This document shows, piece by piece, positions 99 through 64,000 of a stretch of 64,000 nt of DNA. This DNA is from Phoronis australis (lineage: Eukaryota > Animalia > Phoronida). The stretch lies in assembly GCA_002633005.1 (NCBI GenBank), contig NMRA01000224.1, positions 185,988 through 249,987 of the forward strand. The letters are read 5' to 3'. Positions within the stretch are counted from its first letter, which is position 1. The number at the start of each line of letters is the position of its first letter. Position numbers and translations under genes: made by a program. The notes beneath the pieces were generated by a model. The model saw nothing but the letters and a program-made list of their open reading frames with translations, was not told where the DNA came from and made no database searches.

Positions 99-497
99 TC
101 ATACACCCAGAGTACCAAACAGAAGCCTGATTAACGAATACGTCATCAAACAGGTTATATAAAACTGATCAACAACTGATCCGCATTTCTTTGTTTCCTG
201 CCTGCCGAACGCAAACACACTGTGCACAGCATCTGACTTTAGCCTCAGTTTCTTTTTCTGCCCTGGCATGAGTTGTTTGGTAAGCTGGCATTCGTCAGTG
301 AAATCACTGTCAACAAAATGCCGGCCACAGACAAGATAATTCACGTCCTCATACTTGGTATTAACGACATATTTTTCATTCTTCACTGCCTCGAGCCACT
401 TCCAAAGCCTTATGGGCTCTCGAGGAAATCGAAAAAGCGATATAACCGCTTTTCTCACGGCTTCATAGTTCGCGTAAGCGGGATCGATACACCACAC
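99..497 (-). pseudogene. Degenerate THAP zinc-finger ORF, probably a DNA-transposon remnant
   Basis: THAP hallmarks LFRFP, W..AV, VCGRHF..SDF, LRLKSDAV.S.F. The second Cys is apparently Tyr (WCIDPAYAN), the AVP box reads AVH, and there is no in-frame ATG. A ttaa-AGG terminus-like sequence at ~644-650 would fit a Kolobok-type end (inference). Confidence 0.7.
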
Positions 498-661
498 CGT
501 AGCTGCATGAACTTTGCAGAAGAACCACTGACGTCGCTGCGTCGTTTCTCACCTTCCTCACTGGTTAACGCGACACCACTCGGCGAAGTAAGATCGACCG
601 TATACGAGGTGATGTGGATATAGACCGATTAAGACGGCACTCTCCTTTAAACATACCCAAC

Positions 662-3054: not shown

Positions 3055-4117
3055 ATGAGCGAGTTATCCGAGTGTAGAATTTAATCTTGCACTTAGTAAC
3101 AATCTGCCATAGAATGGGACAAATGACCATATCTTTTTAGTATAATGCATGTACAGCTGAGGAGTAGCATGATGAATGTAAAAAATGCTGACCACTGGTT
3201 TTGATTTTATGCAAATTCAAGTCTTCCTATTACAACTCTTCTACCGTTGTTGGTCATTTTCCCCAAGTCACATTTAACTTGGATCTGTCAATCATTGCCG
3301 AGATGCGATTCTCCAAATTAATATTGTCTTCAGAGACAAAGTATGATGGTCCCAGGACCAGCTTGTTGGGGTCACTGCGGTCGAAGTAACTTTATCGAAT
3401 GTTTTGCACTTGTGTCTGGAAATTCTTCAGTGCAATGCACAATAAAATCGAAAATCGTGTTTTGAAAAATCATAGAAGTGTATTGTAACCTTTAACTGAA
3501 TATGAACACACATATTCATAAGAAAACTTTGGCAGTCCAAGTTGACTTTAAATGCCACATCTCGTGTTCATAATGAAACCGAGAAGNATGAGCGAGTTAT
3601 CCGAGTGTAGAATTTAATCTTGCACTTAGTAACAATCTGCCATAGAATGGGACAAATGACCATATCTTTTTAGTATAATGCATTTACAGCTGAGGAGTAG
3701 CATGATGAATGTAAAAAATGCTGACCACTGGTTTTGATTTTATGCAAACTCAAGTCTTCCTATTACAACTCTTCTACCGTTGTTGGTCATTTTCCCAAGT
3801 CACATTTAACTTGGATCTGTCAATCATTGCCGAGATGCGATTCTCCAAATTAATATTGTCTTCAGAGACAAAGTATGATGGTCCCAGGACCAGCTTGTTG
3901 GGGTCACTGCGGTCGAAGTAACTTTATCGAATGTTTTGCACTTGTGTCTGGAAATTCTTCAGTGCAATGCACAATAAAATCGAAAATCGTGTTTTGAAAA
4001 ATCATAGAAGTGTATTGTAACCTTTAACTGAATATGAACACACATATTCATAAGAAAACTTTGGCAGTCCAAGTTGACTTTAAATGCCACATCTCGTGTT
4101 CATAATGAAACCGAGAA
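3055..4117. repeat. ~530-bp near-identical tandem duplication joined by a single N (likely allelic overlap at a scaffold gap)
   Basis: 3055-3587 and 3589-~4117 differ at only a few positions that I could see. The n at 3588 sits exactly at the junction. Confidence 0.9.
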
Positions 4118-4609
4118 GAACCAGAGCTAGTTCATTCCCAACACAGTCCCTCTTGTTATATACCTGACTACAAACTCTACAACACCTACACAGGTTATTA
4201 CAGGTCCACTAACTGTCATAGTCTGCACAATAGACCATCTCAATGACCCTTAATCTTGTTTCAAACCACCTACAACAGGCCTTGCTTTCGTAACACTGAC
4301 TGACAAATGGATATATTACGTAAACAAAACATAGACCTCTTACACAGAATAAGTGGTTATCTCTCTTCATCGCCCGTCATGGCACCATAACTACTTCAGA
4401 ACCTAATAGTTGCATTGATGCGTGAGCTCATTCTTTGATGATTCACTTATCATTCAAATCTTGTTCATAAATCGTTCAAATCTTGATTAATTGTAGTTCC
4501 CTGGTGAACTACAGTAACATAGACTCGTGAAATTAGTCGATTTTGACGACATCGTTTAATTCCGGGAGACAACAGTAGTGACTGGAGCACCCCCTGATGA
4601 CTAAATAAC

Positions 4610-4698: not shown

Positions 4699-5448
4699 GA
4701 AACGTAACACATGGTATATCAGTCCAGGCTTACTTGGTGAGGGTTATACAACACGAGGTTCTAAAACTAGGGGAAAATGGGGCAAGGAGGAGTCGCAAGG
4801 GGGGGGGGAGATCTGTATACACTTGGCATCAACCAATACTAACATGTATTCAGTATACAAAAGTAAATATATAGATATCTATGTTCTTGTTACTTCTCTA
4901 CTATTCCACAATATTCTTAACATACTTAATACCTTTGATAGTGACACAGATAACTTGGTAAGAAGCTACAACATGCCCAACAATTCCACCGTCATATACA
5001 CTTAACAAACTAAGAACACCTAAATCAAATCATGATTAAACTTGCCCAATGTTCAACAAAGATTTGAAACTGCTCTATAAATGAGTACCTTGTGAGTATT
5101 ATGAATCTACACTAATGGTTATGCTCTAGTCAATATATAATTGTGATATTTTTTAATACAATTAAAATTTGTTCATTACCATCTTTTTTTACTGGCAAGA
5201 CAGTCTGAAACATGATCAAATTGTTTAAAATGGAAGCTCCAGAGTGAAGATTTGACCTCTGCCCTTTACACTTTGACCTAGTACAACATGGCACCAAATA
5301 CAGGAATCAGCAGAAATATGGCAGCAATAAATAAAATGATTTACAAGACAGCAACATTGATCAAACAAAGATAAAGCCAGGTGATCACTATAAAAGACCC
5401 AGAAACACAAACAACGTTGAGTATTAGCAAAGAGTGTAGTGTTAAGTT

Positions 5449-6653
5449 TTAGGGGGGTACGTATGGGGGGGGACTCGGTTGATACGAAGGCTCTGTGCGT
5501 GGACGGGGAAGAGTAGAATCTTCACTATTCACGGGGGGGTCGGGAGGATGATACGCTGGCACCAGCGTCTCGTTTTCCATTTCTAACTCGTCCTCGGGAG
5601 GGTCGTCTTCTATAGGTTCTTTGTGGTCTGACGGTGGCGTCGACGGCGTGTTAGATCCCTCGCGGTGATAGGCAGGCGGTTCCTGCGCGGGTTGCTCATT
5701 GTCCATAATAAGTGGTCTGGCCGGAGACTCCGCTTTGTCGTCTAGTTCGTCCGCAAATATAATTGGGATCCCTTTGTTAACAAACGTGCGTTGTTCTTCC
5801 GTCTTCATTTTGCCTTGTCGTCGTTTCCGGTACAACACGCATGCGATAATGCCAGCCAGAAGAAGCAAAGCTACAATGATGACTGCTGGTAAAACTTTAA
5901 CAACAAGGTCATCGTCATCACCTTTAGACTCCCCTCCTTTCCCAGGCTTAGCTGTGGTCGGCTCAGGCTCAGGTTCTGTTCTTGGTATCGGAACAGATGA
6001 AACAGGCTCGAATTCCCCTTGGCAAGAACCTTTGGGTTCCAGTGCCAAGGACGACAATTCAAATGGGTGCATCATTTCCTTCGCTTCAGGTGTAAATGTG
6101 CCATTGGGATACATCAGCTTCTTCAAGAGACCTTCCACGCCTTCGGAGTTGCAGCTATCGCCACCTAGTGATGTGTCGGTCCACGAGAGAATAACGGAGC
6201 CACGCTTGAGACCAGTGATCTGCAAGTTATTACCATTTTTGTTACCTAACAAATTGCCCAACTTCCTAAGAAAATCGAGCTGCATGTGGACGTCATTGAC
6301 AAACGTATCGTAGTCAATATTTAAGGTCATGGTGAACTCATGACTGATGGCCTCTTGCTCACCAGGACGAGGAGCTAATACCATGATGTCCAGTGCTGTC
6401 CTCACTAACGCTTCGCTAGAATCCATTGCTGACACCTTCAGTTGATACAGACCGATATCTTTCTCCATCGGAAGACCAATTAACTCTTGCTTCTTCGCAT
6501 TGTATTTTAGCCAAAAGTTCCTTGGTAGTGTTGTACCTTCCAGAGTTGTGACGAGAACGGCAAGTTTGCGAGTGTTGCCATCCTCGGCATCGATGAAAGT
6601 GTCTTTCGGAATTCTGAATCGGAACACGTTCCCGACAGTGGCAGGTATTTGAC
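5449..6653 (-). CDS. DAG1: Dystroglycan terminal exon B: paralogous cadherin-like domain 2, SEA module, TM helix, ~126-aa cytoplasmic tail
   Basis: Phase-1 acceptor tatatttattttcgtag|GT CAA ATA. Motifs FIDAEDG, RGSVILSWT, Cys pair, TM VLPAVIIVALLLLAGIIACVLY, RKRRQGK, KGIPIIFADELDD, PPAY, PPPYVPP*. Confidence 0.93.
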
Positions 6654-9033
6654 CTACGAAAATAAATATAACACATCACCACGTATTATCATTTTTAAAA
6701 TCAATAATGGTCGGGAAAAAAACAAGGGCCTGACATGGGCTTGAAAGTTCCGACAACTGCAAGCTCTCAACTCCAGTTCAAGTATTTCTCATACTTACTT
6801 TTGACGCAACGTAGTTTTAGCAGACACACAAATGATTCTAGGTCAAGATATAAAATTTTATTCGAGATGGGCCTCACTCTTACCAAATTTTCATGAAAAC
6901 TTGGGTTTTCTCCTCAGACATGCTGGTAATAATTAGAAATGGTAGATGTGAACACAACGGTTGAGTGTGACAGCTTGTGTGCAACAAATGTACAAACAAA
7001 ATGTGTAACTAAATTATATATTTATTGTGAAATGTTTCTATGACATAAGACAGTAGGAATATATGAACTTATATAGTAGAACACACAAGAGGTATCGCTT
7101 ACCAGAAACAGCAGCGATACTTCAGCAAATAATACCGACCAGTTAAAAGGTCAAAAGTCACACCTCATTTTCCCAAGTATCAGAACATTCCACTAAAGTG
7201 GAATTGTTCTTCAGTTAGCTCAAGAAATTGTGACAAGAGAAAAACCAGTTACATTCCACTGAAAAGTCAAATTTACCCCATGTTTGTACAAATCAAGTAA
7301 TGTGGACAAAACATGGTAGAGTTGGTTAGCCATGGACTCATATGCTGTAAATGTAATTCTTATGAAAAATTTGTTTTTTCTACACTGTATAAATTTAAAG
7401 TCCATGCTCAGACACCATTAACAACATCAGAGAAACATTTAAAGGCAGGTTTTACAAGATTTAAAAAACTTAGTAGAACGAGTATTTAAATCACAGCAAA
7501 GACAAGACAACATGTCGACCCATAACTAATTCTAAAGCCTACCAGTCCATCAAAACAAACTACACACTTAGACTACTATACTTACATGGCCATAACTTTT
7601 TCAACCATTGCTACGAAACAAGACATCGTGCAAAGAAAAACAATGGCTGTTACATTGATAGATACTGAACTATCAAACATTGATAGATACTGAACTATCA
7701 AACATTGACAGTTTAAGTGAGCTTGGATAGCAGAAATATTGGTACGATAATTGTTACGAATATGTTTATTACAATAAACAATTGGACATAACAGAAGAAA
7801 TGTGCAATCTTTCGACCATATGCAGGAACAAATAATGGGTCCAGGATCTAACTTCTGAACTCAAACTAGACTCGACCAATCACCCTGTACAATTGGAGTA
7901 CAGATTTGCAAGTTTACTCGATGTGTGTCATGCAAATGTATGGTCAGCTTTGGAGTTGAGTTTCGAGAACAGATATTACATTCCATGCTCTGGGTTATGA
8001 CCAAGGAGATGCGAACATCTATTAAAAAGGGGTTCATTTTTACCCTATACAGCAATGATGGAGAGGCTGCACACTCCACAACAACACAAGATTGGCAAAT
8101 AATTCAGAAACAACAAACATAATTCAGAGGCGTGCAGACTGATCTGTATTACAACGCCAGTTCAAGATTTACATAATTCAGTCTACGATCAATGCAGTCA
8201 TCTCAGCTACACACCAAAGAATGTATAAAAGCAGTTGAGATACAAACCCAAACATTTGAGTGCCATAAAATTCAAAGGATATTTTCTAAATCATTGACCA
8301 AGCAGTGTACTATAGCTACATCTCTCACTGAAAGTGGACAATTACATCTGTATATGTCTATAAAACCATGAATTTACAATTAAAATTAAAATTAAAATCT
8401 CATATAATAAAAGTAAAATAATTTAAATCAACTGTACACCACATGGATGATGAACCAAACATTTAGCTCTCAGCATCGCAACAAACCTAACACAACATAA
8501 CCTCTACTTGCAATTTCCATGGCGTTTATCGTTTTCAGTATTACCACGACAATTTCTGAAACTGCTCATTTTCGGAATTGTTCCCATTAATATAGTTCCC
8601 ATTTACTCACCTGGATGAGAGCATATTACTTGATGACAAATCCTAAATTAATTGCTGTGCTTTAATGTTCATCGTTAGTAAGAAATCACCTCTTTTACAA
8701 AAAACATACTGGGTGCATTTTATGCAATTTAAGTTGCTTTCCCTGAAACAACATATAGTGCAGTTAACGTAAATTCCTAGAAACAAAGAGGTTGCTCTTT
8801 TTACCTAAACCACTAGGCAAAAACTAACACCTGACTTACAAAAGCGTTAACGAAGTAGCGACAACTCTCCTCCATTCAAGAAAAACATAGACTCTCATGC
8901 CCATAAAACCAAAACAAGCACGCGATTGAATATCAATAAAGCCGAAAATTTACTGTAACTTGCATAAAAATTGACGCAATATTTTCTCAAGAGCAATTGA
9001 CAAAATATACTGCGTAATATTCAATCCGTGGGC

Positions 9034-9039
9034 TTTATT
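9034..9039 (-). terminator. Candidate polyadenylation signal for the exon-A isoform
   Basis: AATAAA on the minus strand ~510 nt after the exon A stop. Further AATAAA copies at 7765-7770 and 7021-7026, before the exon B acceptor. Confidence 0.35.
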
Positions 9040-9551
9040 TTAATCAAGTTTCCAAGTTTTCTCCACCACTAGGACGAAGCAAGTCATTTTTTTCTTTCAA
9101 CTGCAATGTTCGTCCGATGCTGCTCTCTAGCATCACGTGAAGTAATTATGCTAAATGAAGACGCATATTGTGTAAACGGGTGCGTCGCATTTTACACAAC
9201 CTTGAAAATTTGTAAGAAATAAAACTGAAAAATATACAACCATCGGTTTCATTTCTTGATTATCTTCCTTTCATTTCCATTCAAGAAGCACTGAGGTGTG
9301 TCTCTGTCAAATATACATTGTTCGTTATTCTGCACTGGAGAAATGATTTTAATCCTCTTTTGATGGACACCAAGAAATTGAAATTGGACCCCAAAAATTT
9401 CGGAAGGCAGAACCAGTGGACCCTGAGTTTGGAATTATGGGGCGAACACTGCAATGACTGTACAATTTGAGTCTTTAACACCACTAAGTTCAAGTAGTTA
9501 ATATCATATGGCATAACTAACGGAGCACGTGAACACAATGTAGCTGCCGCA

Positions 9552-10723
9552 TTATGGTGGAACATAAGGCGGAGGACTAGGCTGATAGGAGGGTTCAGTG
9601 CGAGGACGAGACGACCGTGAGCTCTCATCACCCGACGGTGGTCGCGGTGGTTGGTAAAGCCGAGATGACGAGTCCTCCATTGGTTTGTCCTCCGCTGAGC
9701 TGTCAGTGTGGTAGGCGGGTGGTTTCTCAGTCTCCAAGATTAATGGCTTGGTAGCATTCTCCGGCTTCTCATCCATCTCATCAGTGAAGATGACAGGAAT
9801 ACCTTTGTTGATAAACGTATTCTGATCTTCATCAGACATCTTGCCTTTTCGTTTCTTGCGGTATAAAATGAAGGCTATGAGTCCGGCCAGCAACAACATG
9901 GCAGCAATCACCACCGCCGGCACCACGGTCACAACCCACTTGTCCTTTTCGTCGCCAGATTTAGACTCCTCTTCATATCCGGCAGGAGTTGTCATAGCAA
10001 CGGCAGGAGTTATCATAGCAACGGCAGGAGTTGTCATAGCAACGGCGGGAGCCCATGTCACTGGCTTGAAACCCGTCCTATTCTTCATGCAAGCACCTTT
10101 GGGTTGCAACGAGACAGACATGATCTCATAGTCACCCATCTTGTCCAACATATTTGCTGTAAAGGTCTTGTTCACATACATCACCTTTCCAAGCAGATTG
10201 GCTATCGCTCGGACTGGACACTGGTCAGAGGTCAAAGAGGAGTTTGTCCAACTGATAATGACCGACCCTTCTTTTAAACTAGTAATGACCAGTTTACCTG
10301 GATCATCTTCGCCAAACACACTCGCCAGTTTCGTCAAGAATTCCAGCTGCATGTGGACGTCATTCATAAACGTCTCATAGTCGATATTCAGCCTCATGGC
10401 AAACTCAAACGTAGCATCCTTAACTGCGTCACTCTTGCCGGCCTCCTGCACATTGATGTCAAATGGACTCCTCTCTAACTGTGCATCTTTATCGATTGCC
10501 GTCACAAAAAACTGGTACTTCTTCACGTGCCTCTCAAGTGGAAGACCAATAATCTCTTGTCGCTTCTTGTCGTAAGTCAGCCAGAAATTCTTGGGAAGGG
10601 ATGTTCCAGCAATGGTGCTTACAGTTAAAAGTAAGTTACGAGTGTCCCCATCTTCCTGATCGTAGAAAAGGTCTTTCTTGAATTGATAGCGGAACACTTG
10701 GCCGACTGTCGCAGTCAACATAC
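9552..10723 (-). CDS. DAG1: Dystroglycan terminal exon A: cadherin-like domain 2, SEA module, TM helix, ~102-aa cytoplasmic tail
   Basis: Phase-1 acceptor attgtattccag|GT ATG TTG. Motifs FYDQEDG, EGSVIISWTN (G|S cleavage), Cys pair, TM VVTVVPAVVIAAMLLLAGLIAFILY, RKKRKGK, KGIPVIF, PPAY, PPPYVPP*. Confidence 0.93.
9981..10047 (-). repeat. Coding 21-bp tandem repeat (PAVAMTT x3) in the exon A juxtamembrane stalk
   Basis: Plus-strand unit ggcaggagttgtcatagcaac x3; absent from exon B. Confidence 0.9.
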
Positions 10724-11019
10724 CTGGAATACAATGTAGGTGCAGTGAAGACATTTCGCACATTCAGAAAAGAAATGCCAGACAAAGGGACTACGAAATA
10801 AATTAATTACAAAACAAAGGTACAACATCAAAGCAAGTACAACATGCAAATGACTGGTTTCATATTTTCCAAACAATCCAAGTAGCCGTGAGGTGTAGAG
10901 TTCTCCAAGCACTATCAGAGAAGTGTCAGTCAAGATATCTCAAAAAGTCAAAATCGAGCATTAAAACATTAGGGGAATGTCATGATCAAAAGCACAAAAA
11001 TGCCTGGTAGTTCTCATTA

Positions 11020-11182
11020 GCAGTTATAGCAACTGCGGCTGTTGTCATAGCAACAAAGGCCTTGTCATAACAACATGAGCCATTGCCATAGCAATTCGGG
11101 CCGTGGTCATAGCAACATGGGCCTTTCTTGTAGAAATTTGGGACATTGTCGTCATAGCAACTCGGGTCGTTGTCATAGCAAT
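11020..11182. promoter_or_regulatory. Array of ~7 RFX X-box-like motifs at ~21-bp period
   Basis: GTTGTCATAGCAAC at 11041, with variants at 11020, 11061, 11082, 11103, 11148 and 11169. The 14-bp cores are conserved and the spacers are divergent. The 11041 and 11148 copies match RTHNYYWTRRNRAC. Confidence 0.5.
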
Positions 11183-11981
11183 TGCGACCGATCAAGGGTA
11201 GCAGCGGCACAAGAAAGCATGAGCATGCAATGCCTCGAGCAACTCACCTGGCGATAATACATGACGAGGTTGTCAAGTGGTAGCAGACGTCCAACATCCA
11301 GGCTATAGACCGTCAAGACTGAACACGGCTCTATGGGTAACACTGGGTTAGTTTGGTTGGGGTTCATGAGATATCTTTAACAGACACCCTCTGTATGCCT
11401 TACACGCCAGACAAGACCATGTTCAGAAAATGCCTCACAGCGTAACTACCATAAGGTAATACGTAGCAAATACCTGGACATGCTCTAACAGCGTCCTGTT
11501 ATAACAGCCCCAAACAGCGCCGCCTTAAAGTGGTAAAAACACACACATTGGCCATAGTACTTGTCCTGATGAGTCTCCTTGCTAATGTACTGTTGACGAA
11601 AATAGTTTAAGCTTTATTTGCCCAAAACATGCTTTCAGTTCACTACTAGTACCTTCTCACCTAAATTGGCGAAATTTTAAAGCAAACTTTTCTGGCAAAT
11701 GTCAAATGATTTATTTTTGTTTCTGATATCTTTTTAAGTTTATTGCACAACATTGACAAATCCAAACAAGTTTTGATGAAACTCCTCAACTTTTTTGAGA
11801 ACTACGTATAAAACATGGTATCATTGTAGGTTTTTGAGCAATTTTATAATAATTCATTTACTAAGATAATTTTTTTAAATGTTCCTGAAACAAGATATGA
11901 CTGCCGACAATTGAGGTTGTTAAGCAGTGCAAAATGATTATCGTTTCAACAGAAAATTTGCTGTCTAAATACATTACTCAT

Positions 11982-12149
11982 CAGGGGTGGATCCAGGATT
12001 TTGAGTTAGGGGAGACCAGGGCAGAGTATTAGCCAGGATTTTGCCCATCAGACATTCACACCCCACCCCCTGAACTGCCAAATGGAATCTGGGAGAAATT
12101 TAGAGGGGGCCATGGCCCCCTTGCCCCCCTCCCCTTAAATTCGCCACTG
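11982..12149. mobile_element. Non-autonomous TIR element (MITE) with 5-bp TSD
   Basis: Termini caggggtggatc...aaattcgccactg flanked by ctcat on both sides. A second family member lies at 62106-62379. Confidence 0.8.
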
Positions 12150-14438
12150 CTCATATACTGAATATTTTTATGAAGTTAACATTAGCAAGAGGATTCATTA
12201 GTAGACATACCATTGGACGCTGGGCGAAAGCAAAAGAAGTGCCTTGAGTATGCTCCCAAACAAACAGGCACAACTGATAGTACAATTATTACACTGGTAC
12301 AGTGTACGTCTGCCACTGTGATGGCTGCTGGTGAGTGAACAAACACAAACACATCCTTTCGTTCATATATTAAAACCAAATGAGGACGGTCACCATTACT
12401 TTCAAATAAAGTGAAGAATTACAACTAATATACAGAATATTCTACTTAGATGTTACACTTAACACTACAGCTATTAAAACACTAAACAACATCTTAAAGT
12501 GGCAATAAACCCACATTCACTCCAAGAAGCTAAATTTTGACTTCGACTCCTCCCTGCTGTAAAATTGGTCTCAACTTGTTCCTTACTCACACGACAAGTA
12601 ATTTTGGCCTTGCAAAAAACTGAAAGTTCGTTATTCCTTGAGACTAAGACATGCCGTGACAAGTAAAACTGTGGAGGGTGGTCTTGAGCAATAGTAAACT
12701 GACAAGCCCAGAAGTCGCACCTATTTTGACTTGAGAACATTTTCAGTGAAACCAACTTCACAATGTTAAGAAGTATGAATCAAAAATTGTTTTTGTGATT
12801 GAAAGTGGGTTTGCATTCGCTTTAAACTAATACCAGGGTGTTATCTTAATGCTAGGAGATGAATTTAGATGATCTCAACGGAAACACAAACATTGGTTAA
12901 TATACAGGAATTGTCAAACCACACCCAAAATAACAACAAAGGAAGCAGTTGAACAAAAAATACTTTCTTTATCAGTGGTTAGCGCCAAGACTGGGTAGAC
13001 TAATATCAGTAGCGTATTAGATGAAATGAGTGTTTCACAGTATCATGTAACAAATAAATAATTCAAAAACTGGTAATTCTAAAATAAAATACGGGGGTTT
13101 AATAAGACGGCACCGATTTGAAATTGTGCTATCTCCGATATTATACATTCTGAAGGAGTATACGACAACGTTCGATTACATAACTGATAGTAAGGCTTGA
13201 CAACTCATGTAACAAACGTTTTGTATCGGTCCTTTCCAGAGTTTACCGCCATTGGCTTTTATCCGTATGGTTCTCCCATTAAGGAGACTTTGTAATAAAT
13301 GTGCTCCATTTCCATTGAGAGACATGCTATCTTCCAGTAAAATACGTGTTTTGTAGGAACCTTGCGTCACTCGTTATATTTTAAGAAACGAAGTCACACA
13401 AAACTTTAGTAGCATTCACAGGTCACAGAACAAATTAAAACAAAATATCTCTTATAATAAGCAACACACTCTCCAAAGTAGTTGTGAGCCAGTTAGTTAC
13501 TCAACTAAGAGTGAATAACAAACGGAGAAACAACACACGTTACTGTGAAAATTCCAACATCGTGAACGATAAAAATTTTCATTTGTAAAAATTGGGTCAG
13601 TCCTTGCTTTTGAAACAAATGGAAAATTGCGAAATTAAGTTGAAAGTAATTTATATTGTGAAAGCAAGTTAATAGGGAAAGCTTCAATTCTTTTGAATAA
13701 AAAATTTCGCCAGTATCAATTCCAGAATTTTAAAAGCGTGTGGAATAGACATGGATGGAAGCGCCAAGACCAGAATGCACTTCCAGATAAAAACGAAATT
13801 ATTTCATAGGCAAATTTATGAGAACCATTTTACAGCAAGTTGACCTGCCACTGCATGTTTATGAACTGCCGACAAGACAATATAGGTATTTGAATGGCAC
13901 GAGAAAAAGAAATCCAAATATTATTAAGTAACGTCAGTAAGAAAGCGTAACTCACTCATAAACCAAACAAGATAGGGCAGATAAAATTAAATCAATTATC
14001 AAACCAACATTCACAGGATGTTTTTTAAAATCTTTGCTATGTCAATAATACCTTTTGTAACTTTTTTAACATGGAAAGTTTGAGTTTCAAAATGTTTGTG
14101 GCTAGACGCCCTCGCCAACTCGATTTATTCTAATTTGAAGTTTGAAATTTTGACTTGATCTAATTACAGTGGTACAAGACATTTTCATTTGCGTCATCAG
14201 TTCCAATTTCCTGTCGATTTGTAAAGGTGTTGTGCAGTTTTAACTAACTGTGAGAGTAAATTAAGAATGAATACCTCTGAAGGGAAATCGTGTAAACTTT
14301 ACAATTTGATGGCTTTGTAATTTAGTCATCCAACCGCACACCTCACCGAACACATGAATGTGTAGGGATGAATACTCACACGCATACTAACACAAACGAG
14401 CACACAAATGCACACAAGCAAGAAGACGCGTGACCTAC

Positions 14439-14490
14439 CGATACGATTCTTGACTTTAGGGCCAGTGTTGTCGCCTGGCTCTGGTTTAGG
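14439..14490 (-). CDS. DAG1: Dystroglycan exon 5 (PKPEPGDNTGPKVKNRI + G); last shared exon, first strand of the second cadherin-like domain
   Basis: Strong polypyrimidine acceptor cccttttctttgttcttctag|CCT, donor ATCG|GTAGGT, 52 nt, phase 0 in and phase 1 out. NTGPKVKNRI resembles the vertebrate NQRPELKNHI segment. Not in the ORF track. Confidence 0.88.
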
Positions 14491-15315: not shown

Positions 15316-15516
15316 CGTAGTGGCTCTGGTGGGTTTGGTTGGTCGAGTGGGTCGTGTGGGTCGTGTGGGCATCTTGGGCGTTCTCCGTGTGGTGGGTTCA
15401 GGTTCCGGCGTCATACGGGGGGTGGTGGGCATCACTTTGGGTGTTGGCTTCACCGTGACAACGACATCGGCTGTTCTCATGGGAGTCGGCTGTGCTGTTG
15501 GCATGACAACTGGAGC
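15316..15516 (-). CDS. DAG1: Dystroglycan mucin exon 4 (P/T/R/K-rich)
   Basis: Acceptor tgtgttaattccag|GCT, donor ACG|GTATGA, 201 nt, phase 0/0. Encodes APVVMPTAQPTP...PTRPTRPTKPTRATT. Confidence 0.9.
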
Positions 15517-15984: not shown

Positions 15985-16053
15985 CTTAGATGACATTTCA
16001 GGGGCGACTGTCGTCATTACTTGAACTCTTGTAGGCCGGATGGGCCCAATTGC
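15985..16053 (-). CDS. DAG1: Dystroglycan mucin exon 3 (AIGPIRPTRVQVMTTVAPEMSSK)
   Basis: Acceptor tttccttaccgcag|GCA, donor AAG|GTAAGC, 69 nt, symmetric phase 0, P/T-rich. Confidence 0.75.
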
Positions 16054-17312
16054 CTGCGGTAAGGAAATATATATTAATTGTAGATAGTCCTTCAACACAG
16101 AAAATAGCACTAGAGGGCACTGGTCCTACTTCAAAACAGACTAGCAAAGGTCACGTTAACGATTATTATCATACCAACCAATCACTAAATCAAGTAAACA
16201 CAGGGAGTGTTCCGTAAGGCTATTTTCTTGCAAGTTAAGTTTGCAAAACTTTAGGAAACAGGATCCTGTTGTAAGGCTTAGGTTTCGCAATTATACTTGT
16301 GACCTCAAGATAACAACTGAAATGAATGGTTAGCAAAGCTGGAACACTTGGAATTGTGGAGAAAAGTAATGTACTATAATTTCTGTTGTAAAAGACATGA
16401 TAATTTCCTGTGAGTGCCTAGCTTTATAAAATGTCCCCCATGTAGTTCACTTAATTTCCTGTTAGTTTCTCATCAAGCTGATGGCCCTGAGTATCAATAA
16501 ACCAACTGTGTTCCAGCCAATAGTGTTGCCTCTCTACACGTCCACGATGACACCAACGAAAGACTAACTTAATCAGCAAGTCATGCGAGACCCCAAGTAA
16601 CACCGGTTAGTTCGCCTAACATTGTGTTAGCGTAGCCGTGTTTAATAAACTGCACTATACGGCAAATGCAAGTCTGATTTGTACAGTTGCTTTCAAAAAG
16701 ACAGTATCTCTTTACATTATATTTCACCTGTTTTCTTTCTTGGTTTTTGCAACAACTTCTATAGCGAACCAAGTTGTACAAATCCAACAACTTATGAAAA
16801 CCACTTATAATCTTGCAAATGGAGAAATTGTAAAATTGTAAAATCAATTGTTAGGATAACACAAAGCAGGTGGTACATATGATGCAGTCCAGGCTGTGAG
16901 CCAGACTTTCCACAGACACAGGATCAAGTCAACTAGTCATTGAAGACATGTCTACCTTCCAACCAAGGCCTTAAATCCTTCAATGTTGGGGCAAAGTATT
17001 GGCCCCATTGCCTCTGAAAATATTGAAAAATCACGCAAAATTCCCCACATGAGGCCCAAAAACTCCCCTCAATTGATTGAAAAATTCCCCTCGAGGCTCC
17101 AATCACTTGTAACTTACACAGGTGACAATTTGAAAGAGCACAAAATGTTAATTTTGGCTACTTGAGGCAGACCCTATGAGGGCTCGCAGCAGAGTGGAGG
17201 GTGTTATTGATGGTGATCAGGAGGTAGAATTTTCCCCTCACCCTAAAAATTCCCCTCTCAGAAGGCACAGGCACTCCTTTCCCTCGGATGAACGAGGGCT
17301 TTGCCAACTTAC

Positions 17313-18029
17313 CGATTTTGTTCTGTCCACATCCATAGTGGGCACTACGGCTTTGGTAGGTGGCACCTGAGGCCCGATGGGCGTGGCTGTGGCCTGGATC
17401 TGACGTTTCAGCCTCCTCGTGGGTTTCACCAATTTATTGCTGGTCACGTGCCATCCCAAAATATTGTGTCCGATGGCGGCCGACATGGCGCCGTTCTGAG
17501 CCTTGGACTCCACATCTTCTAGGATCTTTAGGTGATCTTTGTGCACTGACCCGCATCCGATAGTCCAGGATATAAATGCTCCAGGGTGTTTTGGTTTCAT
17601 AGCATCCCCTCGTCCTGCCACAATAGCCGTCTTATCAAAAAGAGGCTTATTTCCCACAGGTAACATTGTTAAGAAGTCTTCCGTCAGTTTCAGATGTTTC
17701 ACCATCTTACTTATAAGGTCAACTTTGCTTGATGGTAACAGCTTATTAAGATCAGTGTCTACCACAACTGTAACCATGGTGACAGCCTCATTAGGCTGAC
17801 ACGTGATTGGCTGCAGCGTGTTAGCACTAGGATTGTCTTGCTGGGATTGGCGGGTTCTCTCCACCACACTAATACTGAAGACATCTTGTGCCCGCCCCCC
17901 TGTGCCATCTGCCCTGACCTGAATGTAGTACTCCCCCAGATCCTGATGACTAGGGACACCTGAGAGTGTGTGAGTTTTCCCATCATACATCAACCAAGAT
18001 GGCAACTGGTCACCATTTCCCTCCGTAAC
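17313..18029 (-). CDS. DAG1: Dystroglycan coding exon 2 (rest of Ig-like domain, S6-like domain, furin site, start of mucin region)
   Basis: Acceptor ttttgtttcag|GTT, donor TCG|GTAAGT, 717 nt, phase 0/0. Motifs LPSWL..D, LSGVP...DLGEYYIQVRA, ISWTIGCG, GWHV, furin site RRLKR followed by QIQATATP. Confidence 0.95.
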
Positions 18030-24367: not shown

Positions 24368-24649
24368 CGTGAGTTGACGCACATCGCCTTTGAATGTGTC
24401 TGATGGGATTATGAACTTGAACACTTTACCAACAACTGCTTGTCTGTCCTTGAGAGCATTCTGCAGCACGATCTGAGGTTTGATGGCGTCGCCCTTTGGT
24501 TGGTCAGCAGAACTAACAAGTTGTTCAATGTCACTGGTCACAGCACCAGCCGTGCACAAGCACAAACACAGTATTGCCATTAACACTAGCACAGTCTGTT
24601 TCTGCAACTCCGTCCTATTGAAGCCACACCTCTTGGTATCGGCAGCCAT
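24368..24649 (-). CDS. DAG1: Dystroglycan coding exon 1 (signal peptide and start of N-terminal cadherin/Ig-like domain); the exon including 5'UTR starts at 24720
   Basis: ATG, hydrophobic signal-like segment VLVLMAILCLCLCTAGA, then AVVGKVFKFIIPSDTF (dystroglycan N-terminal motif). Donor ACG|GTGAGT, phase 0. Upstream acceptor ttttgtgctcttgcag| at 24720. Confidence 0.9.
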
Positions 24650-24712: not shown

Positions 24713-25484
24713 TCACTGTTCTGCAAGAGCACAAAAGAATGACATTTTAGCAAAACCTTATCAGCAATTTCAAGAACTTAAAAATCAGAACTCTTAGAAA
24801 ACCCTAAAAGACAAGTTTGGAGTGCAGTAGCCCTCAATAGACACAGTTGATAAATTCCATGCAAACCCACTGACCAATCAAGGCGGACTGACTAAAGAGT
24901 GAGAGCAAAAAGTAGTTGGTTAACATGAACCAGCTGTGCTGGAGAGAAGGAGCGATAAGGTCCCAAGACAGATGAGTAATAACACTACCCAGCAATATAT
25001 GCCAGCTTAACAAACAGACATCTAGCCAGGCAGGGGTGGGCCTGCTGCTGGTGCAAATTACCAGGTCAAATGGGGAGAACCTTGATGTTTTAACTAAATG
25101 TTTATATATGCAGGTCAAATACTTATTAAGTAAATTGAACTGCCCTGCTCATCAAGGTCACTATCTACCGCATTCAGGAGTGGTCAGAATTCAAATTGTG
25201 AAAAAGGATCAGAGACTCTTTGAAGCAGTTTAGGGTGAACAAACAGTCCATCCCCAATACTAAGATCCATGTCCTGCCACTAAGGAACTGTTGAAATGTT
25301 TAAGGAAATGCAGAAGTGTTGGAGCGATAAGTAATACTAGCATGCACACTTGAGTCCTGTCAACACACTCCCATTTGTATTCTACAATTTTATACAAAGT
25401 ACTGTCAAGACTTCCTTTGGGTAAAATCTCATCAATTTAGAAAACAATATGGCAAACTGGTGACATTTAATCTTCTCAAAGCTT

Positions 25485-57776: not shown

Positions 57777-58512
57777 GTAAGGGGATTTCGCTGCTCTCGT
57801 TATCTCCATGGCCACAAAATTGTTTAGTGCTCCAAGGCAAATGGCATGACACATGTCCTGAAGTGCCATGAGTTTGTACCCCAAGTGCAGCTGTCACATT
57901 TTACTCAAGTAAAATACACTATTTTTATCCTGTAACGAATGGCGATTAAAAATGCTATGTCTCATTGAACTGTGAATATACAAATGAAGTACCAGTTTAC
58001 AGACCACCCCCGGGTCTTCTGGTGTGCAGGAAACCATCCGAGAACCAGTTAACATTACAATCTTGTGAAAGTCTTGTTTTGCTAGACTATTTTTATGTAA
58101 ATGAGTATGGTAATATGTCATCATTACCTTAATGAAACAAGGCACAGTTGTTATTATTTGTTCATTTCACTACCAAATAACAATTGCATAATATTTGGAA
58201 TTACTAGGGTCATCTATATGCTCACACAAGTTCTTAACTGTATCAGTTGTGCTGTTTTCTTAACACTGCAATTTATTTACAAATTGTTTCAGAAAATCTT
58301 TTCCTGATTATAATTGTGCACACAGTTCTCCAGGAAGTCACAAGGTGGCACTTGCTACAAATTTAAATATTCACGGTTTTAATGAGACATAGCATCTTTA
58401 AAGTTTGGATTTTACTTGGTATGTCATGACGATTAAAATAACGATCAAAATGTTGATTAAAACATCCATGCAAACAGGTCTAGTGAAACAACCAGCTTGT
58501 GATATCTTGTAG

Positions 58513-59995
58513 GCATGTTAGGACGCTATCTTGGAAACTTAAAACCCGACCGCCAGGCGTTGTGAAGGGCCAAAGTTGGAAAAGCGCACACTATATAGCA
58601 CACTATATAGCGTTAGGCAGAAAAAGGACAAACAGTGACTTCACTTTACTAACCCCTTCAATCCTGCTGCAGGTTCTAGATGACCACCCATCTCAAGCAA
58701 GCACAACTGAAGACAGCGTGTGCCAAGATGCACATACTCAATACAGGCTTCAGCAATACCATCAAAATATATTCGACATCCAAAAAAGTCACCTGGCAAC
58801 CAGTGACATTGACAAGTACCGGGACAGTGACATTTATAAAGAATCGTTATTGGTATTCAATCCTTTGGGAGAAAATGGACTAACCACAGGAAGTGTGATA
58901 ACACAACAGATGATGAACGACATGAATGATGACGAGATAAATATCTCTGCGGTCAACGGTATTCGAAATCACAGAATTACGTCAAAGAACGAACCAGAAA
59001 CATGCAGACTTAGAGAACAGGAACAACCAGCGCCACCTGAAAACATCACTAGCAACTGCGAAAGTACAGACAGTGAGGACTTCAAAAAGAAAATGAGCAC
59101 TGAACTTCATGAACAGAATACAGAAAGAGAAACTTCAAGAAACAAATCGTTCCAAGAACTTCATTTAGTTGAGTTAGAAGCCAAAACAAGTTGTGATGAA
59201 GCAATAGTGCAGGAAAATGTAACGGAAGTCACACACATGAAATCAGCTACAGAGGAGGAAGTCTTATTAATGACAACCAATGACACGGGCGCAGTGTTGG
59301 CTAATGACAGTGAAGCTGGAGGCAAGCTGGACAACTACACGCAGCCTGAGCAGACAGGTAGCGACCCCTGTTGGACAATGGATGAAGTGAGCCAAGAGAA
59401 TACAAACAACTCCAGGCGATCAGCAGAGTCAAAGATGAAACAAATCACAAATACTGACGTACAACAAAAATTTACCAAACGAGTTAATACCAACAGGAAC
59501 TGTACAACGTATAGTGAAAATCCGATAAAATGGCAAACTTCTATGAAGCCTACAAAGAAGCGAACTATTACCAAAAGAGTTGACAAGAAAGACTGGCAGA
59601 CTACAACGAATGAAGAAACTTTGACATGTGAAGAATCCCAAGTCAATGAAAGTCACAGGCCCACTGCAAAAACAAATAGTTCCCAGAATGTCGACCTCAA
59701 CAAATTGCCCAATGCAATGCGAAACAAGACCATGTTAAATAATGATGTGGAAAATCGAGGCAAGAAACTCTATGAACTAAGACAGAGTCACACCTGGCGA
59801 CTGCCCAAGATTGCTGCGCGTACAGCCAGATGTCAGCAAGAATGGCACCGAGGTGAGACGGGGTCAGAGCACAGCAGTCGGCTGGCCGTTCGCTTGCAAT
59901 GGGAAATGGAAAAACTCTCAGTCTTGGCAAAAACAGCTACTGCAGTCTACCCAGACATAAATGAATATGATAATGGACGTGACTCATCTAATTAA
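58513..59995 (+). CDS. Large terminal exon of the uncharacterised gene (T/N/E/S/K-rich, likely disordered)
   Basis: ~1.5-kb stop-free frame in AT-rich DNA. The phase-2 acceptor tatcttgtag|G CAT is in frame with the upstream exons; an alternative phase-0 acceptor (ctaac...ctgcag|GTT) lies at 58673. No recognisable domain. Confidence 0.65.
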
Positions 59996-62105: not shown

Positions 62106-62379
62106 CGGGCGGATCCAGGAATTTGAGTTAGGGAGTGCCAGGGCAGAGTGTTAGCCAGGATTTTGAGTTAGGGAGGGCCAGGGCAGAGTATTAGCCAGGA
62201 TTTTGAGTTAGGGAGGGCCAGGGCAGAGTATTAGCCAGGATTTTGAGTTAGGGAGGGCCAGGGCAGAGTATTAGCCAGGATTTTGCCCGTCAGACATTCG
62301 CACCCCCAACTGCCAAATGGAATCTGGGAGAATTTTAGGGGGGCCATGGCCCCTTGGCCCCCCTCTAAATCCGCCACTG
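62106..62379. mobile_element. Second copy of the 11982 MITE family with an internal 40-bp unit expanded to 4 copies
   Basis: Same ends (gggcggatccagg...taaatccgccactg) and same body. Unit ttttgagttagggagggccagggcagagtattagccagga x4; flanks aaaat/caaat. Confidence 0.85.
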
Positions 62380-64000
62380 CAAATAGAGCTTTACCGATTC
62401 ACCAAATTCTTTCATATTTCACCAATTCTTAAATTCCAAATAAAATACTAGGACTGTTTTCTCAGGTGTTCCTGCCAGTCAACTGCATTTCTGTGCAAAT
62501 ATGACTTTGGCAAAGTTTCCAGTCTCCCAGAAAATATCGCTGTACTAAAACAATGGGAAACACACAAGGTAGATGTTCATTTCAATGTGGAAGTTGTGAA
62601 AACTTGCTCATGGTTGGGCATGCTACATTCTGATGCGAGTTTAGAGATGAAAGGACCACAAACATTGTTGTGGACAGGAAAACTAAGCTACATTTAAATT
62701 ATTCATTCTTTACAAAACTGAAATCAATTTGTATTTCGACATTCAGTCATAAACTGCAATAGTAGATATGTCCAGTCTAATAATGGCATAACACTTGAAG
62801 TCAACAGAAAAAAATGACCAACAGAAATGTCCAACCACCTGTGAAAAGGCTAGAGGTTGGTGTAAACAACAAATAGACTAATACACAATGTTATACATCA
62901 CCACCTCCATCAAAGCAATGCTATTTAAATGCCCAGGTTAAAGGAGTACTTGGGTAGTCAGGTGTGCTACATTAAGACATATATTCCATTGCGAAACGAG
63001 AACAAATTGAGCTGAAGTCAACTGAAAAAGCGAGCTTTGCTTATTTGCTATCTTTTAGTTTTACCCACATGGCACATTGAATCCCTGTTTTGACATGTTA
63101 CTTGTCATACACTGCTCGCTGGCTGGGCTTAATTTCAAAAGGAGTTGGATTGTGAAAAATCCCTTGTCTAAGCAGCTCATCCTTTATGTTCTACCTAAGT
63201 ATGTACCCCAACTCTCTCCTGTGACAACATCAAAGATCTTGCCCCTAGCCAAGGCGAGGGGGTAAAACTGAGTGCAAATCAGACGCCTCAAAGCCTGGAA
63301 CTCCGGCCCAGAAAACAAGAAACTTCTCAGGCCAATGCCCAAAGATGATAAAAGGCACAAAAGAATCTATTGCATCAATACTCAATTTCATAAGTCACCG
63401 ATTCGGTGAGGATGATTAGCTCCTTCAATGAACTTCTTGTCATAGAAGCAGCCAAGGCGACGCTTCGAGCGCTGGTCTGAAAAGTAATCATAATCGTCTC
63501 GTCGATGGAGTCGCGGACGAACACATGGTCATTCTCGTAGTCATTTTAAGAATTCTTCAACACAAGTCTAATCGTATTTGGTATGAACAGGGACCAAATA
63601 TCACAATTTTACTCGTAGTGACCGTAAAATGTTGTTCTTGGGAACAACAGAAGCAAAAACCACCACCTTCTTACCTGGCTTTCTTCTGCACTCAAAGCTT
63701 CCTCAAATCACGTGACCTAGTTTACCTGTGACTGGTCACGCTCACAGTGGTTTAATCAGAAACTACATATCGGGGATTTACCGGGCAGCAGGTTTCGGTG
63801 GGGGAGCAGCTCGTGGCATAGGCAATTACACCTCCCTGAATGCCCCAGGCATATAGGCAAACGAGGACCAGCGTGTTTGTCTATTCATTGTAGCGCAGTC
63901 ATTTGCAATAGAAAAACCTAACCTTCAGCATAGGTGATTTTACACAACATGTACGGCTAGAAAGTAGCATGCCGATCGATGTAAAACCCAAAACCATTAT

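Follow-up and report, generated by a model that had tools for sequence, protein, structure and literature searches.

The stretch analyzed here (the window) is 64,000 nucleotides of contig NMRA01000224.1 from the phoronid Phoronis australis (GenBank assembly GCA_002633005.1, positions 185,988 to 249,987 of the forward strand), and all coordinates below are positions within it. It contains one dystroglycan gene, on the minus strand, in which five shared coding exons (440 amino acids) are followed by two homologous terminal exons, termed A and B. The parts of this gene are the following, where UTR stands for untranslated region and TM for transmembrane:

24368..24649, minus strand: coding part of exon 1, shared; ATG, a hydrophobic signal-peptide-like stretch, and the start of IG1
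17313..18029, minus strand: exon 2, shared; remainder of IG1 and an S6-like domain
15985..16053, minus strand: exon 3, shared; mucin-like, 69 nt, phase 0
15316..15516, minus strand: exon 4, shared; Thr/Pro-rich, mucin-like, 201 nt, phase 0
14439..14490, minus strand: exon 5, the last shared exon; first IG2 residues, phase-1 donor
9552..10723, minus strand: coding part of terminal exon A (minor, proximal); IG2, G|S site, two Cys, TM helix, tail, PPPYVPP, stop
7005..9551, minus strand: 3' UTR of A, ∼2.5 kb; end inferred just beyond the AATAAA at 7026-7021
5449..6653, minus strand: coding part of terminal exon B (major, distal); IG2, G|S site, two ectodomain Cys, TM helix, tail, PPPYVPP, stop
4750..5448, minus strand: 3' UTR of B, continuing past 4750; sense depth 36 to 59

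The coding introns begin with GT and end with AG. Exon 5 (52 nt) ends in the phase-1 donor ATCG|gtaggt, and the two acceptors that match it are ccag|GTATG at 10723 (A) and cgtag|GTCAA at 6653 (B). When exon 5 is joined to A or to B, the resulting frames translate to 830 and 841 amino acids with zero internal stops. An earlier note on this DNA, made from the letters alone, had proposed the exon coordinates, the phase-1 donor, both acceptors, and products of ∼830 and ∼841 residues; all of these check, and the frames are open. Within the shared half, exon 2 matches PF18424 (IG1; E value of 7.7e-28) and PF05345 (S6-like; E value of 2.6e-6) and contains the sequence RRLKR, which we take to be a furin-type motif, while exons 3 to 5 carry a predicted mucin-like region rich in Thr and Pro. 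An AG acceptor at 24720, 71 nt upstream of the ATG, points to an untranslated first exon beyond it, a feature of other dystroglycan genes as well.

RNA was examined in four runs: X1, a set of contigs from one study (taken to be RNA by guess), and X2 to X4, sets of stranded raw reads produced by another study, of which ∼18 to 19% was analyzed. The joint from exon 5 to B is present in all four runs, with 44 (36 + 8), 25, and 15 reads in X2, X3, and X4, plus one X1 contig. The joint from exon 5 to A is present in two of the four, with 0, 2, and 11 reads in X2, X3, and X4 (2 and 9 start points in the latter two); these reads have GT..AG ends, and their first mates lie on one strand. Exon 5 is thus spliced to either of two last exons in RNA. 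The main test suggested in the earlier note, detection of the joints 14439->10723 and 14439->6653, was therefore passed, and its proposal of a choice between alternative last exons is supported by both joints together with separate 3' coverage of A, with unequal use of the two (13 versus 84 reads). Upstream, the joints of exons 2 to 3 (46, 39, and 37 reads) and 3 to 4 (51, 30, and 41 reads) occur in X2 to X4 and in the X1 contig, hence in all four runs. A single 2,256-nt X1 contig spans exons 2, 3, and 4 and continues through the exon 5 joint into B. Loose ends of RNA behind 18030 fit the 3' end of exon 1 in all four runs, and those before 15316 fit exon 5. Skipping of the mucin exons was not seen among exons 2 to 4 in this RNA. 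Read depth is ∼25 to 65 over exon B and ∼2.5 to 11 over exon A; in X1, depth is 15 to 65 over pieces of A and its UTR.

The two terminal exons share one set of N-terminal exons. A tBLASTn search with 192 homologues found no dystroglycan-like sequence in the gap between A and B or in intron 5, so no second N-terminal exon set lies there; together with the complete upstream RNA chain, this agrees with what the earlier note had reported for the gap. The whole window has two Ns, at 3587 and 27472, so no N interrupts the region that holds all the coding exons and both cassettes.

Downstream of A, sense depth is 3 to 15 as far as the bin at 7074-7405 and 0.06 to 0.4 in the bin at 6742-7073. This fall adjoins the AATAAA at 7026-7021 and a U-rich stretch, and one X1 contig ends at 7063; A therefore appears to have its own ∼2.5-kb 3' UTR, with the cleavage site inferred. 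A second AATAAA lies within this UTR at 7770-7765. The ∼2.9-kb gap between the cassettes had been read in the earlier note as a probable 3' UTR with AATAAA signals; the depth profile fits this, but no poly(A) tail reads were seen. At the 3' UTR of B, 44 to 71 reads per run cross an end of the examined stretch.

Each cassette encodes the final ∼152 residues of alpha-dystroglycan (IG2 and MAT) plus an entire beta subunit. Both exons match PF05454 (DAG1; E values of 1.7e-50 and 7.8e-59), and both match the mammalian dystroglycan chains 8yt8_O, 9c3c, and 8uf4 by sequence. The predicted folds of A and B have the same order of secondary structures and resemble 8yt8, 9c3c, and 8uf4; the models have mean predicted local distance difference test (pLDDT) scores of 67 and 65, high over IG2-SEA and low over stalk and tail. 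The cleavage sites of the two cassettes read LKEG|SVIISW and LKRG|SVILSW (G|S Ser codon at 10265 in A and 6198 in B), and the conserved cysteines are Cys168/211 and Cys167/210. A single TM helix (∼9938-9861 in A, ∼5907-5830 in B) is followed by a basic juxtamembrane motif, RKKRKGK in A, which matches a mammalian chain, and RKRRQGK in B, and then by a tail of 102 residues in A and 126 in B that keeps an internal PPAY and a terminal PPPY in each case. The reading of each cassette as IG2, SEA G|S site, TM helix, basic motif, PPxY tail, and stop is thus backed by Pfam, PDB, and fold matches. The description of the cassettes as interchangeable holds insofar as both are joined to exon 5, but they are diverged, being 46% identical at the protein level (BLASTP).

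Several of their differences fall in functionally suggestive positions. B is without the N-x-S/T sequon directly after the cleavage site that is present in 114 of 124 scored rows of our alignment, A included. A is without the motif TPxSDHK, found in 21 of 137 rows, among them B, Lingula, Lineus, and Capitella, and its tail is the shortest of 92 measured (102 residues; median, 120). After the second Cys, the sequence is C-MKNRTG-FKP in A, where it includes a sequon, and C-QGE-FEP in B; this segment corresponds to the position of the matrix metalloproteinase (MMP) site in human dystroglycan, where a buried MMP site at HL715-716 and FIP718-720 has been described (bioRxiv 10.1101/2022.04.04.487063). 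Roles have also been described for PPxY and for the nuclear localization signal (PMC9733019). No passage on the role of a sequon after G|S was found in the literature searched. Judged from the sequences, the differences between A and B may alter shedding, glycosylation, or partners, and the reciprocal loss of motifs may represent subfunctionalization.

To place the duplication, four trees were built. The first retained 137 rows after removal of 50 (cluster members, short pieces, and redundant vertebrates); two were based on subsets of 48 and 32 rows chosen by hand; and an extended tree added 83 rows from 141 new proteins, the others having been excluded because of length or coverage. In each of these trees, A and B form a sister pair, with support of 0.999 (137 rows), 99 (48 rows), 100/99 (32 rows), and 99 (extended), and none of the 83 added rows grouped with A or B. 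The pair belongs to a clade whose other members come from annelids, molluscs, nemerteans, and brachiopods (97/93 in the 32-row tree). It adjoins Lingula at 83 in the 48-row tree, whereas the 32-row and extended trees do not settle its position. Pairings of A with Lingula and of B with Lingula are rejected (p-AU of 0.004 and 0.003 in approximately unbiased tests), which places the duplication after the split from the sampled relatives. Searches for close relatives turned up none, the best BLASTP identity being 43% for B, and 40% and 38% for A. In the 32-row tree, the end branches of A and B are long and equal (0.64 and 0.63), so the duplication is old and neither copy evolved faster. The 374 codons that could be aligned give a pS of 0.715 and a pN of 0.331, corresponding to rough estimates of ∼2.3 for dS (near saturation) and 0.44 for dN. 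The final 18 residues are the same in A and B, while their codons differ at 14 of 18 positions; this argues for selection on both tails and against gene conversion, which we had considered as a source of the identical ends and rejected.

Given these results, we consider it likely that this one gene specifies two functional receptors of 830 and 841 residues, which would share the same predicted ligand-binding front and carry different proteolysis domains, anchors, and tails. The arrangement may have arisen when a lineage-specific intron was gained at the start of IG2, splitting an ancestral large 3' exon and leaving IG2-SEA-TM-tail-3' UTR as one unit. If this unit, including acceptor and poly(A) signal, was then duplicated in tandem, two alternative last exons would have resulted. 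Intron gain in this region occurred more than once, as indicated by differing acceptor positions within IG2: in five metagenome loci with annelid-like dystroglycan (L001, L003, L004, L006, and L007), the acceptor lies ∼13 codons deeper into IG2 than in the Phoronis gene, and L002 has an uninterrupted large exon. The choice of isoform would be made between cleavage at the poly(A) signal of A (∼7.0 kb) after use of its weaker acceptor and read-through to the stronger acceptor of B, with B winning by default; the acceptor of A has T at 6 of 16 positions and that of B at 11 of 16. Competing RNA pairing was sought, and only short, chance-level inverted repeats were found. Both forms would undergo self-cleavage at G|S, and dystrophin would be bound by the 18 C-terminal residues that they have in common. 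Differences would be expected in ectodomain glycosylation, shedding, and tail partners, since each copy is missing one motif that is retained in the other. An in-frame chain of A into B, the arthropod form, was also considered and rejected: A contains donor-like sites, but no joint from A to B is among those listed in the four runs.

The following observations weigh against two functional receptors. A is the minor form, with 13 of 97 joint reads over three runs and none in X2. Its joint reads are confined to a single study, and the joint is in none of the listed X1 contigs. Sense depth in intron 5 just upstream of A is 1.2 to 4.7, compared with 0 in most bins of introns 2 to 4, so part of the RNA from the A region is unspliced; such retention fits the weak acceptor of A. 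Use of A differs among runs (chi-square p of 1.9e-6; X2 versus X3, p of 0.14), but the genotype of X4 differs from that of X2 and X3 at 6514, 16005, 17367, 17599, 17664, and 17957. The between-run difference is therefore confounded and does not demonstrate tissue regulation; a cis variant could account for it. Polymorphism in A is not clearly below that in its own UTR (7/543 versus 36/1,576; p of 0.22). In addition to the missing poly(A) tail reads, searches of homologues and metagenomes found no second species with this layout. Among the metagenome loci listed (at least 26), there was no second TM-plus-tail module, although more than 2.9 kb of downstream sequence was available only in L001 and L006 (4.1 and 4.6 kb), making this a weak negative. 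Support for the receptor form that carries A is at the level of RNA and sequence.

A repeat array in and near A may bear on how the choice is made. Its two parts are as follows:

9980..10051, minus strand: 21-nt repeat, 3.4 copies, in the stalk of exon A (PAVAMTT-type units); three X-box-like palindromes
11026..11181, minus strand: imperfect copies of this 21-nt unit, within intron 5, 300 to 460 nt upstream of the A acceptor; two X-box-like sites

All five sites in the 64 kb that fit the RFX X-box consensus GTHNYY AT RRNAAC (as printed in bioRxiv 10.1101/2020.08.21.260547) fall in or just upstream of A, with 9 strand matches versus 0.56 expected. Since these motifs are copies of one repeat unit, they are not independent, and the array may be merely a minisatellite. 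We offer only tentatively, as something rather less likely than not to hold, the idea of a cell-type switch of the whole membrane module. B would be the default anchor, with a long tail and the ancestral TPxSDHK, and A would serve specific, possibly ciliated, cells, with a short tail, an extra sequon at the metalloprotease site, and the X-box array. If this were true, it would be the first dystroglycan with a beta subunit chosen by splicing.

Among explanations that dispense with a second receptor, the one that survives best, though we think it unlikely, is that exon A is a long-kept leftover duplicate, now mostly splicing noise, and that B alone is the working receptor. The 0 A versus 44 B joints in X2, the retention of intron 5, and the polymorphism comparison fit this account, as do the shortened tail, the loss of TPxSDHK, and the repeat inserted in the stalk. 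However, the 389-codon frame of A has stayed open while silent sites are near saturation, the A branch is as long as that of B, and all core motifs are kept; moreover, A contributes 11 of 26 joint reads in X4. In simulations of neutral point mutation, the A frame was still open in 8% of trials with 0.05 changes per site and in 1% with 0.1, but in 0 of 300 with 0.3, so only a recent relaxation is plausible for A.

We regard as very improbable the proposal that much A RNA starts at an internal promoter in intron 5 (e.g., the X-box-like array), lacking exons 1 to 5, with splicing from exon 5 secondary. It could draw on the clustering of all five X-box-consensus sites, on in-frame ATGs at 10763 and 10721, and on X2, where depth is ∼8 at the start of A with no joint listed. 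The motifs, however, are copies of one unit, no pile-up of starts is listed, and the product would be without a signal peptide; furthermore, low-depth sense reads run through most of intron 5 toward exon 5, as retention predicts. Hardly credible is a fusion of two genes or haplotypes by the assembly, for which the near-exact 532-nt duplication around the N at 3587 might be cited, because reads link each cassette to one and the same exon 5, there is no N in 3588-27471 and no second N-terminal half, and 46% protein identity means that A and B are not alleles.

Other observations in the window concern intron 5 and the flanks. Reading through exon 5 into the retained intron (14439-14326, minus strand) would extend the frame by 37 residues, including a hydrophobic stretch, to a stop codon; the predicted product is possibly a truncated, alpha-only form or a chance outcome of GT-rich DNA. 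Interspersed repeats at 11980-12120, 12555-12590, and 17110-17250 draw reads of both strands, and 11993-12150 has an inverted copy at 62235-62380. The duplication around the N at 3587 is direct (3055-4118; 532 nt, 99.4% identical) and is probably an unmerged contig overlap. An open reading frame with a THAP domain (99-548, minus strand; PF05485, E value of 1.2e-11) is possibly a transposon remnant or a neighboring gene, and an open frame of 502 codons (58487-59995, plus strand), whose product would be rich in Glu, Thr, and Asn, has no Pfam match above cutoff.

Compared with metazoan DAG1 (PF05454 + PF18424), the Phoronis gene has the same domain order (signal peptide-IG1-S6-mucin-IG2-MAT-G|S-NU-TM-tail), an intron inside IG1, two conserved Cys, and a C-terminal dystrophin-binding PPxY (PMC5216574, PMC4582122). 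Unlike the usual gene, which has two coding exons, one of them a large 3' exon, it has five shared and two alternative last exons. The five annelid-like metagenome loci above also depart from the published two-coding-exon layout. In surveys of dystroglycan, the large 3' exon is described as conserved, each gene as having a single beta subunit, and the repeats of modules as never exon based (PMC5216574, PMC4582122). In-frame repeats and the fish and lamprey paralogues have been catalogued (PMC4582122). The IG2_MAT_NU repeats (two in arthropods, Saccoglossus, and Trichoplax; six in Nematostella) likewise duplicate the IG2-SEA region, whereas the duplicate described here is an exon with its own TM helix, tail, stop, and UTR, used in place of the other copy. 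Two metagenome contigs carry tandem arrays of 10 to 14 IG2-SEA-like modules (L018, 531-10067; L020, 480-8429), and other proteins have up to ∼20 to 30 such stretches. Teleost and lamprey dag1a/dag1b also provide two beta subunits per organism, but as whole-gene copies with their own N-terminal halves; the Phoronis cassettes share a promoter and 440 N-terminal residues. Drosophila Dg is another alternatively spliced invertebrate dystroglycan in which, however, a mucin exon is included or skipped, and no change of the membrane part is described (PMC3245913, PMC5216574).

The closest parallel lies outside the family. Tandem clusters of 3' cassettes are an established class (PMC6191721, citing Hatje and Kollmar 2013); as here, homologous tandem terminal cassettes have their own stops, and a shared donor is spliced to each in RNA. 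The examples PGRP-LC, CG42235, and Pip of Drosophila are other genes in another phylum, and the Phoronis cassettes are single exons. No description of such a dystroglycan layout was found in the literature searched, which was mostly open access and to which the supplements of PMC4582122 and PMC5216574 may add. The suggestion that the arrangement was undescribed thus stands for dystroglycan but not for duplicated alternative 3' cassettes in general, which are known in other genes (PMC6191721). By the features tested, the gene is a dystroglycan that operates in the manner of a tandem 3' cassette gene, not as an in-frame repeat form or a set of whole paralogues.

The significance of the locus is bounded by its occurrence in one lophotrochozoan species, the low share of its second isoform, and the fact that the general mechanism has been described before. 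Within those bounds, it is an RNA-supported exception to the family pattern, in that an exon holding the IG2-SEA proteolysis domain along with the anchor and tail has been duplicated. The locus provides two natural beta subunits for one and the same alpha head, in which the dystrophin-binding end is the same and the sequon, the shedding loop, and the mid-tail differ. Such a pair lets one ask which functions of beta-dystroglycan (cleavage, shedding, signaling, and nuclear entry) separate from dystrophin binding.

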